A DNA stretch of 64,000 nt from Rhina ancylostomus (taxonomy: Eukaryota), in assembly GCA_030265395.1 (NCBI GenBank), contig JARFYF010000001.1, positions 45,347,506-45,411,505 on the forward strand, written 5' to 3'. A model generated the notes under the pieces. The model did no database searches. It saw only the letters and a list, made by a program, of their open reading frames with translations, and was not told the origin of the DNA. Shown in pieces: positions 15,537 to 33,585 of this stretch; the first letter of the stretch is position 1; every line of letters starts with the position of its first letter. The translations under genes and the position numbers were made by a program.

Positions 15537-15832
15537 CAGCGCCTGGTAGACGCAGAGGGAGACAAACTTACAGCCGATTCCAAACCCTGGAGCTGGAAAA
15601 GGAATTCCTGTTCAATCCGTATCTGACGCGAAAGCGAAGGATCGAAGTTTCTCATGCTCTGGGACTGACTGAGAGACAGGTGAAGATTTGGTTTCAAAAC
15701 AGGAGAATGAAATGGAAAAAAGAAAACAACAAGGACAAATTCCCAACCTCTCGGAACGACGATGAGGGGGAAGAGGTCAAGAAAGAACAGGAAGAGCCTG
15801 AGCAGGACACAACAGAGAAGGAGACCAAGTAA
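15537..15832 (+). CDS. HOXD8: HoxD8 coding exon 2 (homeodomain)
   Basis: Acceptor TAG|CAG. Encodes [70 protein letters not shown]; the YSRFQ motif is D8-like. Confidence 0.95.
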
Positions 15833-16217
15833 CTTTACCCCTTTGGCCTCAGAGAAGAACGCCATTCAGATTGTGCCAATTCCACTGTTATACGTGTTGA
15901 TCAGATTGAATCCTCCAGCACATTGATGGTTAGTTTGGTGTAAACAGTCCACCAGCTTTTGAAGTTCTTTCGAGCCTTAATTCAACATTATTTCAAATGA
16001 GGTCTGTGTGCATCATTTTAACCTTTTCGATCACACCCTGGCAGACATAGTATCAACTGTCCTATAGAATTTTGCAACTCCCTTTAAAAGTGGAAGTTGC
16101 AATATCCCAGAAGAAATAGCCATTTTGAATAAAGATTTTATTGCTTTTAATAGGAAAATATAAAATGAAATCGTGATTAATTTAGTTTGTTGATTTTATT
16201 TAGCATTTGTGATTACA

Positions 16218-16238
16218 CCCAACAACATGAACTGCCTA
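16218..16238 (+). promoter_or_regulatory. miR-196 target site in the HoxD8 3'UTR
   Basis: CCCAACAACATGAACTGCCTA compared with the reverse complement of miR-196a, CCCAACAACATGAAACTACCTA: one G:U pair and one missing A. Confidence 0.9.
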
Positions 16239-16857
16239 ATAGAATGGATTATTTGGAATGTATTGCGAACACACTTAATTAATGATAGAAACAAAACAGT
16301 GCACTTGCGATGTGTCTTAATTACTGTGCGTGTAAACTAATTGGTGGTGTATTGCGGCTGGAAATTCTCAACAATTACCTATTCTCTGAAATGCAGTTAA
16401 TAAACATAAGCAAAAAAATACAAGGTATTCCGCAGCAATAGTCACTTTTTATGATGGCCGAATGTGATTAAATTAATAAATGTTGATTAAATTTAACCGT
16501 GTACTTGTTTCATTTTACGACCAGTGTCCCAAAGAAAATAAAAGTAACGTGTGCTTGATAGAGAATCATTATGGCTTGATTGAGACAATCAGTTGAGATC
16601 GCTGCAATTATCATTTAGCCAGCGTTCTGTGGCTGTTTCGAGTAGTTCCTGCAAGATTAAATCGAATGTACTTTATTTTTGTTTACCTCTGCGGTCACAA
16701 GGTGTCCGTCTGCCATGCAGCACGGCAGTTCTGATCAGAGGATGAAAAAGACTGAAGATGGTGTATTTTTTTATATGTAGTTATACAAGTTAATGATAGA
16801 GCTGATGAGTAGAATATTAGTTTATCTATGCCCTATGTTAAATGTCCTTCGGGTGGT

Positions 16858-17970
16858 CATTGGCTAGTCAGATCACATGCCTGGCTCATGTGTGGCTAAA
16901 ACGACGCTGTAAAAGTTAGTGTTTTGTGTAAAGCTGCGGTCTACTGTACACGTATATCAGCAAATCTCGTAAAACCGACAATAAAATTCTAATACTACAA
17001 ATCACTCGGCAAACTGAGGACTTCTAGGTTCCAATTTATTCTTTTCCGCTTTACAGGCTGGAGGCGAAAGTAGAATCTCCAGTTGTTGAACAGCCTTCCA
17101 TTTTGCCATTAAACTTTACATAACCAGCGATCAAACCACATTTAAACTTTAACAGGATCAGAGCGCAAGCCCCATATACATCCTTAGTACCGGAATAGAC
17201 GATTTTCGATGTCCACCTTTATGCACAAGTTACAATGTCATGGTAGGGCTGAACAAAACAAAACAATGAGAGCAAACAGGAAACGATTCTAAGGAGGGGG
17301 AGGAAAAACATACCTGCTACCAATGTTATACAAACAACTAAAAAGAGCGGTATAAAATTATGAGTAGCGGAGTTCAAAATCCACGCTGAAAACGCAACGA
17401 TGTTAAGATACATTCATAAACAGCTCTCAGATATGTAATCGAATTTACTTATATATTGCACAATTAGGCGTTATACTTTTACAATGCCCTTATCCTGCCA
17501 GGTACAGTTGCCAACTTAAACATCAATTAACCATTTCGAAATGAGAAGAGACAAATTTGCAAACTGCAGTTTTGCTGTTAAGGTTTATAGAATATGTTCC
17601 ATGTATCCAATAAAAAAACTGGCTTCATGCTTTATGTTAAAGCAAACGCATTTCATCGGATTCATACAATATCAGAAAGGTCCCAATTGACCAAGTAGAT
17701 AAATGATTTCAGAAATAAATCAATGATTTAAGAAGTGATATCAAGATTTCATTTTCATGTTTGTTTTCTCCAGTCGGCGGAATATTCTTAGCACGATTTA
17801 TTTCACCAGTTTTTCAAAACTTATTCTCACAATCTAATCAAATTTCCCCACAATCGTATGCACAATTGTGTTTTCCCAATAGTGTTCCTGATATGAGTTT
17901 CCTTTAATAAAGAACGCTTATCTGAAAAATGCACAATCTCTATAATCAAATTCCAAACCAAATTATGAAA
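16858..17970 (+). pseudogene. Putative fossil HoxD7 (promoter/5'UTR retained, coding sequence decayed)
   Basis: CATTGG-N10-CACATG; TTTTGTGTAAA..TATATCA..CTCGTAAAACCGACA..ACAAATCA resembles the HOXA7/HOXB7 5'UTRs as I recall them; AGG ACT TCT sits where ATG AGT TCT is expected; correct collinear slot. Confidence 0.6.
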
Positions 17971-19588
17971 CAGAGCTATTTTGCCTTTGCTGTATTTTAG
18001 TGGATCAATTATTTGTCTTCGTTGCATTGGAAGCACCGACGGGTTGCACAATGGCAATAGGTCTGAATCTTAGTAATGATCTTATTAGATGATAGAAATC
18101 TCACTGGAGGGTTTCACTGGAGGAATGAATGATGCAAACAACCAGGAGGCTTTTTGAGTGGATTTAATCTGTGAAGGCGGGCCTTAAATTTCATAATTTC
18201 ATCGATTATTTTTTTAAAATAACAATGATATCCAAAAATTCCCCGACCTTTAGAGATACGAGTTGAAACAGCCTTTGTGAATCCGTACAAGTGGATTCTT
18301 CGTTTTTTTTCAATCCATTCGCTGTTTTAAGAAGCAGTCTTCTGCAGAAAACTTCCCAGCCCATCCTGCGTATATTCCAACCTCCCCACCCCACTCCAGA
18401 AAAAGAATTTTTGGATTAAGAGCTAATGGAATTTCAAAGGTTTAACATTTTATTCATGTTGCTTTGTATTTTAATTTCGCATCCCCACCAGTTTTGTGGA
18501 TATCGTCAGTTACGTTTGAGAAATGGGTGTTTAGCCGTTTAGCTTCTAGCGGGCTGTTGTGTATTATTTCCGTAAAATTATTTTGAAGCATGAGTCCAGA
18601 CACAATCTGCCTTCAACATACGTAACCCTGCGGGAAACGTGAGACAAGGGAGAAAGGTGGATACCAAATATCTACCAAGCATCTTCTCCCCTAATGAATT
18701 TGCTGTGTAGCATTGTGACATTGGCTGCCGAGCTCCCTCGCCAGCAGCGAGGAGAACAATTGCGGTTCAAACTGATTCAAACATTTTGCATTTTTCATTG
18801 GCGTTAAAAATATTTGCACGGAACGGAGCTATTTTTATCAATTTAACCTAAGTTGTTGTGAACACTGGGATGTGTTATTTCATTTTATTTTCTCTCCTAC
18901 AATGAAAATAGGAGGGGCATAATGAAATATTCCGCAGTGATTAGAAATGGAGGCTCGATATGTACCAAGATAGTCCCACATACTCAAAATCAGCTTCCTC
19001 TTTCTCACCTGTGTAGAATGCACCTTGGAACATTTATTGTAAGTTGTCACTCTGTTTACATTATTGCTTTTTATTGTTTGAATGAAAGCAGTCGCCATGG
19101 TGCAGATTTTAACTCAGTGGCCAAGCGTGTTTCAGATTCGCTTGTTTCTTATTCTTAACCCAGCCAAATAGAAAGGGCTCAGGAAATCATGTCAAAGCAA
19201 AATCCGGAAGCCCGTCTGATTCATAATAGCTAACATTGGGAAATGTGAATCATACCAGCTTCATTATTTGCAGGAGTTATTTATTCTCGAGAAAACAAAA
19301 TGTTATACTTGGCGCGTTGAAAACATGGACTAAAAGGCCCTAGATTATCAAATCGCACGGGTTTGGTTGCTGTGGTGTGAAGTACCCACTGTAGAAAGAG
19401 TTATTCCACTTTATGTTTACGTTGTTGCTGCACTTCCGCCTGTGCAGTTGGTTGGAAGGTTCGTTACAATGCATGTTATATAACAAATAGCTGTAGCAAA
19501 GAACTCGTTAAAGGAAACATGGCGCTTGCGAGCTGTACTTGCGAAATCCGCAAGGAATTGCTGCGAATTCCTTTTTGTTTGAAGAAAA

Positions 19589-20057
19589 TTTACAACTTTG
19601 TAATGGACCTTTTACGAGGGAGTCCGCGCTCCCATTGGCTAGTTTTGGTCATGTGAATCAAGTAACTGCGTTCATGGCCTTTTCATGATTTCCCTTGTGA
19701 ATATTTCACTGCATTCCGCTGCTAACTCGTCTCAAACCGTCTTTTCTGTCAGTATCTCCCCTTCCCTGCTTTTGTCGTTGGTATTTGGCGCCAGCTGCTT
19801 GGGAAAAAAGGAAGACTTTCCGCTCTATTCGCGGTGTTCAATCCTTTTCTGTATAACTATGAGGAAGTCATTCGACTCATGCTGGGATTTAGCAATCTGA
19901 TCTCTCTCACAGACCTCTGACGTCTGCTTACAGTCTTTTCATTTACCCTTCAATTCGCTTTACCTATTTTAAGTTATTTTGATAATCGAAACTGTACAAA
20001 TGGAATACAAAATCCATCTGGTTCCTATTCTGGGGCAGCGGCATGAAACCGGTAAGT
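19589..20057 (+). promoter_or_regulatory. Orphan Hox-type promoter with a probable non-coding first exon (donor at 20052)
   Basis: TTTACAAC 19589, TTTTACGAG 19610, CATTGG 19633, GGTCATGTG 19647-19655; perfect donor CCG|GTAAGT at 20051/20052; no Hox CDS follows. Confidence 0.55.
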
Positions 20058-22849
20058 CTTTTTGCTCTTGCCTGCTCGGCTGTTGCAGATAGCAGTGTTG
20101 TAATGGGAGGCAACGACGTTGTCTTCGCTGGTTGAGTTCTCGGCAGCTGTTTGGCAGGTCGAGGAATGCTCGACATAAATTAATAAACAGCAAGACTGAT
20201 TTTCAAACGGCGTATTCTAACCAGGTCCAGGTGGTCGATTGAGTACAAACGGTGGCTGTGCAGCAGATTCATTAGATATTTATTTTCCGCAATGTGACCG
20301 AGAGTTGCGAATCTTGCCTATCTTTGAGATGATAACCTTACTACAAGCCAGCTGACATTTGTGGAGATTGGTCGGATTGCCTAGTTCAATTGAGATTTAA
20401 TTTGTAAAAAATATATTTTTGTTACTTTTAGTACTGATGGCTCTCTGGTTCTGGTTAATTTGCGGGAGGGTTGCCCGGTGAACTGCCTCAGTGATTGGCG
20501 GCTTCAGTCTGTTTTTGCTGATCTGTGGTATTCCATGCTATTTTCTATCTCGCAGCCGAGGGTGGGAAGGCTGGGCTCTTTTGCTCTGTCAAATGAAAAG
20601 TTGGAGCAATGAATGATGGATTTGTGTTAATGATCTTAATAAGTCTGTGAAGCAATCACTGGCTTTAGAAACATCGAGAGCTATGGGATTTGGGGGGAAA
20701 TGCTTAGCTAACATTTTGATGATATTTTACCACGTGACAGTAGTTTGCGCAAATGAGCAGTACTCTTAGAATAATTTTCCCGCGGTCAACATCAGACATG
20801 TTTTCAATATGTTAATGACGAATAGAGGGTCATAGATATTTCTAATATTTTGTCGTTGTGCAAATAATTTTGGTTTGTACATTTGGTGAATTGTTTCTGA
20901 ACATGATATATCGAGTTGTGATTGTTCATACATTTATATTGCATATAAAAACAAGAATCTCTCCATTCTGGGAAATGTTTTTGATTTGATGTAAACAGCT
21001 GCAACTTCATATTAGTAACTTCATAATGTAACACAAGGATTGCAATCTTTTATTCTATTCTTATTTCTCAATGTTAATTATTAATTGCAAGAGTCTGTTG
21101 GGGAAATATAGCAATGGGAAATATGTAACGGACAACATATGATCATGTGTTATTGTAAGCAGAAAAGTAATGTGAATATTTCTATAATTGATTTCTTTTT
21201 CTTAGCCAATTGTTTGTATTTCCGCTGATTAAATGTTCGAAAAGAATTGCTCCTCAGAGATGTAGGAAGAAGTTTCCAGTTGCATGCACTTGAAAGTCAA
21301 TATTATTCCACTATAAACTGATTCATCTTTCAGATTCCAGATTATTTACAGGAAACGAATAAAAATATATCAGCTTGACCCATGTAGTGTATGATTATAC
21401 AGATATTTATTCGGCGCTGACCACTGGTATCTGTTTGCAAATGACATAATTAAAACCCCATTTTCTAACCGAGTCTGTTGGACAGACCGACAGGTATATT
21501 GTTGAAATGAAACACCGGACACTAATAATTAGGTCACAACGTTTTGCTGGAACCAAATAAACGTCTCGTGACATTGTTGCTATTCTTCTATCGCAACATA
21601 AAAACTTAAATATTAATTGTCTACTTCAGGCATAACTGCCAAGAAAAATATGATATTTAAATCATATCAGATCGCGACCGTGAAGTGCATAATATTTTGC
21701 TTTATGGAGAATGCGCCTTGATTTTTAAGCAGTGATTGGCTTTAATCATATTCCGCATTGTGTTTCCATATACTTTTCAATGCATCTGCGATCGCTACGA
21801 TTTGTGGAACAGGAAAATATCATGCAGCAGTTTTTAATTAAGATCTTTTATCTCAGTTTAAAAAGTGAACAAGTTAAATATTTGTTAGATTTTTTCTCAT
21901 TAAACTAAATCTGTTTTGCATTAAGTACACACGGTCAGTTTTTNNNNNNNNNNCCTAATGAGACATAATTTGGGTTAAAAAAAATCTCGGAACAAAAAAA
22001 GTAAATCTTCATTATAAGTATAATTAGCAAGTGCATATTTCCAAATCACGATTCCTCTGACAATATTAAGGTGGGACTATTTATTTTCTTCAAGGCAAGC
22101 CAACAAAATATTCCATGATTTCTAAGTGGTAAATATGTATATCGTTTCGTGTGTGTGCTGTTTAGTTAATATGCAGAATTATATTTGGAAGCTTAAATCT
22201 GAAGGATTTTGCGCAGGATGCACTTTCTATAGTAGACCAACAATGCTCATATGTAATTATCAATCAATTTCAGTACAGCATTCAAAATTTCTTTTTTAAT
22301 GGACACATTTTAGTTCATCTGTGACAAAATGTGATCTGACTCTTCGCAACGTCGAATATCTTTTAATTCATAATGTTCTTTTTCATTTTTAATAAATATT
22401 TGTAAACGTAAACAACTCCCAGTACGGATCCTGCATAATTAATCTAAGTGCCTCGCAGGAATTAATTCATTGCGATCCTAGAAAATTGCTCACTCTTTAC
22501 AGGACTGATAAACGAATTTCCAGATCGCGATCTTCTCCCGAATTTATTAGAAGGGCCAACGCGCTGCAAAAGGAAAAATCAACAGAAAAAAATAATTAGC
22601 ATGTGGTGCGAGAACTGGTTTCTTTATTCCACAGTATGAACGGGGATTCCAGTCACGTCTAGTGGAAGGTTAATTACAAGCTATTTTGCGTCAAAAGTTT
22701 CAAGGACATAGAGCGGTGGTCTGGATTTCTTTTTTAATTTAGCTGCACTCAGAACTGGAAACCAAACGCTCAACTGTTCTTTAAGAACAGCTGATTAGTA
22801 CAGAGCAAATATAATTTCTTCCATCCACTGTCAGGCGGTTGCTGCAATG

Positions 22850-23860
22850 TTAGATTTACGAGTGCTCGAGTGCTAGACGGTTGGATTGTAGCAACTATGA
22901 TCCTAGCCCAGAATTATAAAAGAAAAACACAAATCAAAATTCCCCAACGATAAATGAAACCAATCCCTATATTATGACATTTAATCTAAAGTATACGTTA
23001 GCATGTTATTTTTTTTCTTTTTCCGTTTAAATGTAATTCATCTTAAGTTATAAATTGCTCATCTCTTTAATATCATATTTCGGTTTAGAACACCTTCAAT
23101 CCAGGCCCCATGCGGCACTACTACGAAACCTTAATCCTGAAAAGATTCCAATAACTCGGAGATCTGTGCAATTTCAGACAACAATGGACGGTGGGCCCAG
23201 CTACCGACTGCGTACTATTTCTTGCATCAGGCATGAATTATTTCGCAATACTTTAGCTCCATTCTCTCAAGTACCTGCTGACAAGAATCAGGCAGAGGAG
23301 CACAAAGAGTCCGATTTGCCCACACTACAAGACAATCCTGTAAACACTGTAAATATATTTCTACCGCGTCCAATAAATCAAACTCTGTCCAAACTAAAAA
23401 TTGCGCACGCGCGCGTGTTTGTGTAAGGGGTGCAGTGACCAAATAAACTGATGATCCTATTTCATCAATTCACTTACTTACCCAGGTAGTTCGGGGAACA
23501 CCCAATTTTACCCCCCCCCCCCAAAAAAAGCGCCCAGGAACAGATAACTGAAACCCACGTGCGTTAAATATTACTGCCACAATGGGCGGATCTTTGCCAA
23601 ATTCTTCAGACTCAGATTAATGCAGTCAGTGTTTTGACATCGTTTCATTGCCTTCATTAGTTGTGCCGTTCCGGATCACAACCAAGCATTTATAATTCCC
23701 CTATTAATCAAGGAGGAAAAGGCAAACGGTGTTTTTAAATATTACATTTATTGCTGTCGCAGTTTTCCTGTATTTGTGGCCAACTGGAATTGATTCGATG
23801 TGTCTCTAAGAGTGCTGCACCGCGAAACAATCTGTCCGAAGAAAGACAACGGCCTGAAAG
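22850..23860 (+). pseudogene. Possible fossil HoxD6 (weak)
   Basis: GGATTG..CTATGA..CTAG..TATAAA..ACAAATCA followed 17 nt later by ATG at 22954; faint Hox6-like codon fragments; correct slot about 2.4 kb before HoxD5. Confidence 0.3.
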
Positions 23861-25139
23861 TGCGGTCCTTGTAATCTGCACTATTCGTTTTCGATAGCTT
23901 ACCATATCGGTTCAGGAACTGCCTCAGTACCCATATTGATCAGATCTTGCAACGGATCTAATAGAAATATTCTGACCCACTGTAGCTTAAAATGCAAGAA
24001 AAACCACCGTACAGCTGAATTGCACAAAGGGAAAAAGTGCAGAGTGCACTTCGCCTTGGGTTTTCGGTTATGTCGTGAGTGGCCTCGACTTAACCAGTCA
24101 CAACATAAAATAATTTATAAAATAATATAGATTCTTAATCCTTTTTTATTTCTTTAACCAATGTTCGATGAAAATAGAAAGCAAATACTCATCTAGAATC
24201 CTGACTTTAGTGCTCAAAAGACAGTAAACGATGAATCACGTGCTTGTAAGTTTTAAAAAAAACTAACTGCAAACTTTGTGAAGTCGTTTTTCCGTAAAGG
24301 TATATGATTTAACAATCTAAGGTAAACAATCGAAGTTCAGTATTCTACGAAAATAATACTGCGGTGTTAGTAAGCTTTAGTGATATGTGCAATGTGCACA
24401 AATGTGAATCGTACATTAAGGGTTTTACCGAACAGAATAATTTCCCCGGCGTCTTTTAGCACCAGGAACAGATTCTACAAACTCCAATCCGTTGAAGTAA
24501 AGATTGCAATAAGAATTGCGAAGTAATAATAATTACTGGAAATATTTAGGATTTTTTTCCTATCAAGCTCTTCGTCGTGAATCTAATTATTTACTTACAG
24601 AAAGCACCAAATTTTGGGGTAGAGTGCATAGTTAATACAAAGTAGACGCGTTCTGATTCAACACAGTAATTCTAGTTCAAACGACGTGACTTGTGCAATA
24701 AAACATGTTGAATTATTTGGAAGCAATTTCAGGTATTAAGATTATCGTATGACATTTTGAGTCTCGGGGTAATGTTATTTTACATCACAGCTTACGATAA
24801 CTGCAATTTTAAATGAACGCGTACACTCAGTTTGTATTTATATAATCGCTTTGCATGTGCTCACCTATAGATGCCTCCAATGTGTAACTGATCATTGTAG
24901 ATAAAAAAGACTTCATAAGTTAACGATTATCCTAAATGGCGAACCATGTTAAAAGCTGAAACCAGTGTGGAAAAAATACATACAAACCCCTTTACGCATC
25001 AGTCTCTTTCAATTTTGCTTTGTAGATATGAGCCTGGCTTTCTCCATGTTTGTCAGAAGGAGGCGCTGTAGGACAAGGCTCGCTAAATCACAGCAAGCAT
25101 TCTCACTGCATGAATTACCCCCAGGGTCAGGCACAAGAA

Positions 25140-33499: not shown

Positions 33500-33585
33500 C
33501 CGTCGTCTATATATACCCTGTAGAACCGAATTTGTGTGATGTTTCGGTCACAGATTCGTTTCTAGGGGAGTATATGGTCGATGCC
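33500..33585 (+). ncRNA. MIR10B: mir-10b precursor (5p 33514-33536, 3p about 33550-33571)
   Basis: TACCCTGTAGAACCGAATTTGTG is mature miR-10b-5p; complementary arm ACAGATTCGTTTCTAGGGGAGT; canonical position upstream of Hox4. Confidence 0.97.

Follow-up and report, generated by a model that had tools for sequence, protein, structure and literature searches.

The group-7 position of the HoxD cluster raises the question of whether a gene that is no longer there has left anything behind. To our knowledge, HoxD7 is absent from every known jawed-vertebrate HoxD cluster, and a group-7 gene in HoxD has until now been inferred solely from duplication history. The window analysed here is the whole 64,000 nt stretch of Rhina ancylostomus DNA at 45,347,506-45,411,505 on the forward strand of JARFYF010000001.1 (assembly GCA_030265395.1). 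Six-frame translation locates Hox10, 9, 8, 5, 4, 3 and 2 within the window, with Hox13, 12 and 11 upstream and Hox1 downstream. The gene order is 13-12-11-10-9-8-(element)-5-miR-10-4-3-2-1, and the element under study, window positions 16858-17025 (~170 nt, ~1.2 kb 3′ of the HoxD8 stop), occupies the group-7 position. Clusters are named according to gene content; from that content we infer a HoxD cluster of cartilaginous-fish type, which includes HoxD5 and HoxD2.

A homeodomain search of the same genome placed HoxA on C84, HoxB on C58 and a HoxC-like cluster with gaps on C81. The four clusters, 464 kb in total, were compared with the element, the reference genes being HoxA7 (G000:C84, ATG at 104782321, minus strand) and HoxB7 (G000:C58, ATG at 3076164, minus strand). 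Contig G000:C81 is gappy and repeat-rich, carries Hox10-, 9-, 8- and 6-like genes and is probably the HoxC cluster, which older work reported as lost in elasmobranchs. For the question of a HoxC7 remnant, 56,549 of the 90,000 fetched bases of C81 read N. The far end of the window holds a separate relic: ~2.8 kb past the HoxD2 homeobox, at 62590-62954, a CCAAT/E-box promoter of Hox2 type is accompanied by part of Hox2 exon 1, which carries a frameshift and is ~70% identical to HoxA2 and HoxB2 (E 2e-14 and 5e-14). Where the 5′ portion of HoxD2 should lie, at 58530-59027, the sequence is N; a tandem copy that has decayed, a rearrangement of HoxD2 or a fault in the assembly could each account for the relic. 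Features of the locus are collected in Table 1.

Table 1. Features of the element and its surroundings (window coordinates)
Feature	Position	Strand	Remark
HoxD8 stop and 3′ region under X11 contigs	15830..16979	+	probable RNA run, other species; reaches into the remnant
Reverse CCAAT box CATTGG	16858-16863	+	promoter module of the remnant
E-box CACATG	16874-16879	+	10 nt after CATTGG
Second E-box	16887-16892	+	promoter module 16858..16892
Homologue of Hox7 start region and 5′ leader	16920..17016	+	blocks TGTAAA, TATATCA, CTCGTAAAACCGACA, ACAAATCAC
TATATCA	16953	+	quoted motif confirmed
CTCGTAAAACCGACA	16966	+	quoted motif confirmed
AATAAA	16980..16985	+	D copy only; candidate distal HoxD8 poly(A) signal
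ACAAATCA	16997	+	quoted motif confirmed
AGG ACT TCT	17017..17025	+	opposite ATG AGT TC; last detectable homology
Pyrimidine/U-rich tract ending in AG	17035..17056	+	candidate poly(A) downstream element or splice acceptor
Second paralogous element	19515..19732	+	matches ~4 kb behind HoxA7 and HoxB7 start codons; downstream anchor
mir-10	33507-33578		sole Rfam match in the window

In blastn comparisons of 16600-17600 with the four clusters, the HoxA7 leader aligned over 160 nt at 67% identity (E 1.3e-12) and the HoxB7 leader over 104 nt at 69% (E 2.5e-8). These were the only two significant non-self matches, and both end in the first codons. A profile of the two leaders recovered the element at E 5.6e-15, with the runner-up at E 1.4. 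The assembly holds only two Hox7 first exons, two of four matches being strong and the other two at E 0.33 and 1.4. When 29 real Hox leaders were scored against the element, HoxA7 and HoxB7 reached 120.5 and 102 and the next leader 45.5. Likewise, among 3671 windows of 400 nt on both strands of the four clusters (mean 33.6, sd 6.0), the HoxA7 and HoxB7 leaders were the top two, at 124.5 and 107, with the best unrelated window at 62.5. The 2.2-Gb assembly contains three copies of a core 13-mer, those of the element, HoxA7 and HoxB7, and no fourth. The distances are also comparable, 1187 nt from the HoxD8 stop to the AGG and 1576 nt from the HoxB8 stop to the HoxB7 ATG. Weak similarity extends upstream of the element, where random starts did as well in 9 of 300 and 0 of 300 trials. 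The element is almost certainly the HoxD-cluster paralogue of the Hox7 promoter and 5′ leader, as judged from these alignments.

Broader searches were less discriminating. A genome-wide DNA search with 16800-17150 returned only the element itself, since the method is too insensitive for 62% identity, and a 10-mer pattern with 726 matches was uninformative. A pattern scan of metagenomes gave two matches in unrelated, non-Hox DNA, and these were dismissed as chance.

Common Hox promoter motifs might have clustered here independently, or a cis-element shared between clusters might merely overlap the Hox7 leader, and the CCAAT/E-box module and ACAAATCA do recur at many Hox promoters. Against this, the match is collinear over 170 nt, ends at codon 3 and preserves the spacing to the start codon. 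The window scan, the 29 leader scores and the 13-mer count, with its three sites genome-wide, largely refute such an origin, which we regard as highly improbable. Core identities are 120/168 between HoxA7 and HoxB7, 108/173 between HoxA7 and the D copy and 99/162 between HoxB7 and the D copy. HoxA7 and HoxB7 disagree at 46 columns, and at 34 of these the D copy has the letter of one or the other (binomial test with one half as expectation, p 0.0008, approximate given that the alignment was optimised), which argues for descent of the D copy rather than shared motifs.

The initial annotation had read the element as the ghost of a HoxD7 gene and had set in advance a check by alignment, which the element passed, being collinear with and significantly similar to the Hox7 leaders while other Hox leaders stayed at or below 45.5. 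The motifs that it quoted, CATTGG, CACATG, TATATCA, CTCGTAAAACCGACA, ACAAATCA and AGG ACT TCT, all lie where it placed them, and the HoxA7/HoxB7 leader that it gave was tested against the real leaders on C84 and C58. Its spacings for ACAAATCA are likewise correct: 12 nt separate the motif from the AGG, and 16 nt lie between it and the start codon of HoxD5. The motif alone is not specific to Hox7, being present in 7 of the 29 leaders (A5, A6, A7, B5, B6, B7 and D5), all of groups 5-7. Only its distance to the start, 12 nt in the D copy, 12 in HoxA7 and 11 in HoxB7, points to group 7.

The AGG at 17017, 12 nt after ACAAATCAC, aligns with the ATG of HoxA7 and HoxB7, and to this extent the proposed ghost holds. 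The proposed cause, loss of coding function through ATG>AGG, is not supported in that form, as no coding body is found past codon 3. In the D8-D5 interval tblastn gave no match below E 0.1 for a coding remnant. Searches with nhmmer for exon 1, the intron ends and the 3′UTR found nothing significant in D, and a homeobox remnant was likewise absent between HoxD8 and HoxD5. Anchored extension from codon 4 was at chance, random starts being as good in 110 of 300 and 71 of 300 trials. A codon-like match beyond codon 3 was discarded, since 24 of 300 and 17 of 300 random starts equalled it when counted from the start codon.

The interval to the downstream anchor, the second paralogous element, is shortened. 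This element is common to HoxA and HoxB (E 5e-22 and 3e-23) and lies 2617 nt from the former start codon in D, compared with 4177 nt in A and 4059 nt in B. HoxA7 measures ~1.6 kb from start to stop and the D interval is ~1.5 kb short, an argument to be read knowing that intergenic lengths vary anyway. The absence of homology past codon 3 and the shortened interval suggest that the HoxD7 coding body was likely deleted, and that the ATG>AGG change was probably secondary to the loss. Since no recognisable decayed coding sequence was found, the element does not qualify as a conventional pseudogene and is a promoter/leader remnant. The anchor itself also carries a CCAAT/E-box promoter module, is a promising candidate for the start of long transcripts and is, we presume, the known H8/7-6 ‘four-cluster sequence’.

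What the remnant may do is suggested by its promoter module. Within the fetched clusters, the plus strand matches the pattern ATTGG-N9-12-E-box 18 times, and 13 of these matches precede a Hox start codon by 97-205 nt. The other five comprise three in the second paralogous element, one in a HoxA2 intron and the one in the remnant, which sits 158 nt before the AGG and thus at promoter distance. The two E-boxes are spaced 7 nt apart in HoxA7, HoxB7 and the D copy alike. In the sections available of a study of NF-Y sites, E-boxes are fixed 11-12 bp from CCAAT, with USF1/MAX (PMC3730095). The CCAAT box and E-box of that module, at 10-11 nt apart, resemble those of the remnant; the module is generic, and the likeness tells what the remnant works like and not where it came from, binding being a prediction (PMC3730095, as far as available). 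Polycistronic Hox transcripts that arise from a common upstream promoter, such as HOXC6-5-4 and HOXD4-3, are also described in the part consulted of PMC1831499. By that likeness, a promoter located between Hox8 and the genes after it, and lacking a gene of its own, could drive long transcripts. The HoxD7 remnant differs in being known here from sequence, and HoxD8 and HoxD7 go unmentioned in that part of PMC1831499.

Because the module is typical of Hox promoters, and given the NF-Y/E-box precedent and the known shared Hox promoters, we propose that the remnant is a retained promoter-type cis-element. The HoxD7 coding body would have been deleted, leaving promoter and leader at the empty group-7 position, and selection would have retained them in this capacity. 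NF-Y and USF/MAX-type factors would be recruited by the CCAAT box and the E-boxes, and a posterior Hox/Cdx-type homeodomain factor by the CTCGTAAA block, which we take to be a site of that type. The remnant would thereby influence the transcription of nearby HoxD genes: it might provide a weak start for non-coding or long RNAs heading to HoxD5/miR-10/HoxD4, or it might affect HoxD8 in the manner of an enhancer. This mechanism, taken whole, has in our judgement about an even chance of being right.

Several features sit uneasily with a promoter. The AATAAA inside the leader, where HoxA7 and HoxB7 both have ACTGAA, would cut short upstream transcripts and is odd in a 5′ leader; CGGCC, five letters common to HoxA7 and HoxB7, is mostly lost in the D copy. 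CpG density is ordinary, being equalled or exceeded in 21 of 57 windows of the interval, and a simple pattern scan found no strong splice donor within ~480 nt downstream. Apart from these features, the tract at 17035-17056, 40 nt 3′ of the dead start codon, is a strong splice-acceptor-like sequence, with pyrimidines at 16 of 19 positions, a value equalled by 3 of the 258 YAG sites in the D8-D5 interval.

The persistence of the leader might owe nothing to selection. One gene-body deletion, with the leader readable only through slow genome change in cartilaginous fishes, would leave a neutral fossil. The shortened start-to-anchor distance, set against the length of HoxA7, agrees with such a deletion, and slow evolution in cartilaginous fishes is stated, in the part consulted of PMC2746220, to complicate footprinting. 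The decayed Hox2-type promoter with its broken exon 1, at ~70% identity, is also still visible in the same cluster. A single deletion of the gene body would make the missing coding remnants uninformative on whether the leader was selected.

Other comparisons point away from neutrality. By leader score the element ranks third of eight A-D pairs and second of six B-D pairs (A5 and B4 partly masked). In a three-way comparison the D branch is 0.35, within the range of the four living D leaders (0.09, 0.28, 0.49 and 0.61). The D copy retains 63 of 82 columns inside the motif blocks compared with 17 of 29 outside, and a block of 15 nt is identical in HoxA7, HoxB7 and D. No similar remnant of other missing paralogues was found with the 28 of 32 leaders that could be scored (four were too masked), the next candidate scoring 63. 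Unlike group 7, HoxD6 left no leader trace in 19800-25100 when HoxA6 and HoxB6 leaders were used. Retention of the CCAAT/E-box module and a divergence no greater than that of living HoxD leaders suggest that the element was likely kept under selection, and a neutral fossil is unlikely.

Selection need not have acted on a promoter. The remnant may owe its retention chiefly to a place at the distal end of an extended HoxD8 3′UTR, where its gained AATAAA would direct distal polyadenylation or termination, a function that can coexist with that of a promoter. The sequence features of a candidate poly(A) site are present, namely the D-specific AATAAA, preceded at 30-70 nt by TGTA words and followed by a U-rich tract. 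Contigs of four sequencing runs were compared over 15900-19500, with none of the listed runs on record as RNA and X11, from another species, taken as RNA by guess. Within the stretches covered, X1, from another organism, shows no difference over 16864-17014, and X11 shows no indel in 16790-16979, a comparison that lists indels and not substitutions. X11 covers the HoxD8 3′ region at depths of 840-1440 up to about 16250, followed by a single 763-nt contig over 16220-16979 (mean depth 380) that stops at the base before the AATAAA. No X11 contig covers 16980-17426, and contigs can be removed by a filter. Yet this evidence comes from one run of four, X2 and X7 being without contigs there. Cleavage would be expected ~20 nt beyond the end of the contig, which has no poly(A) loose end. 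Its depth is a flat mean, and earlier AATAAA signals at 16399, 16475 and 16537 could carry most of it. The two 151-nt X1 records, 16864-17014 and 17027-17177, flank the predicted cleavage zone on both sides, and the intact CCAAT box and both E-boxes would be left unexplained. We consider it rather doubtful that 3′ end formation is the main reason for retention; the remnant may nevertheless have a second role in distal polyadenylation of HoxD8. It is also conceivable, if unlikely, that the HoxD7 promoter and leader outlived their gene by >400 million years through double re-use, the CCAAT/E-box module as a live cis-element and the leader with its AATAAA as the distal HoxD8 3′ end. If this were true, the start of a dead gene would have become the stop of its neighbour.

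Further upstream in the HoxD8 3′UTR, 16218-16238 is a near-perfect miR-196 site (duplex -33 kcal/mol with the species’ own miR-196; -36.8 for the HoxB8 site), and X11 contig depth steps down around it.

Matsunami et al. (2010) reportedly described paralogous conserved non-coding sequences in vertebrate Hox clusters. Such sequences are also known from the part consulted of PMC3595034. Like them, the remnant is conserved between paralogous clusters, here A, B and D, since the genome duplications; it differs in being a proximal promoter and leader that ends at a start codon, in a cluster that lost that gene. Traces of lost Hox genes are on record, as far as the sources were available, in psi-HoxD12 of a caecilian (PMC4470032), the HoxA14/HoxB14 pseudogenes of the elephant shark (PMC3707753) and hoxb7a of a cichlid (PMC2080641). 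Each leaves, as here, a readable trace at its cluster position, but in those accounts the traces are gene or coding remnants, whereas for HoxD7 only promoter and leader remain and coding sequence is undetectable. No description of a HoxD7 remnant was found in the literature searched, a set with the main Hox footprinting papers outside its scope, nor in the available parts of PMC6158797 and PMC8293171, and the remnant may already be catalogued as an unnamed footprint.

The remnant provides direct sequence evidence that HoxD once had a group-7 gene and shows precisely where that gene lay. It also offers a 170-nt, testable case of regulatory DNA surviving its gene, which is one proposed reason for the compactness and intactness of Hox clusters. 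Additionally, it serves as a warning that a conserved block read as ‘HoxD8 3′UTR’ can be a fossil promoter.
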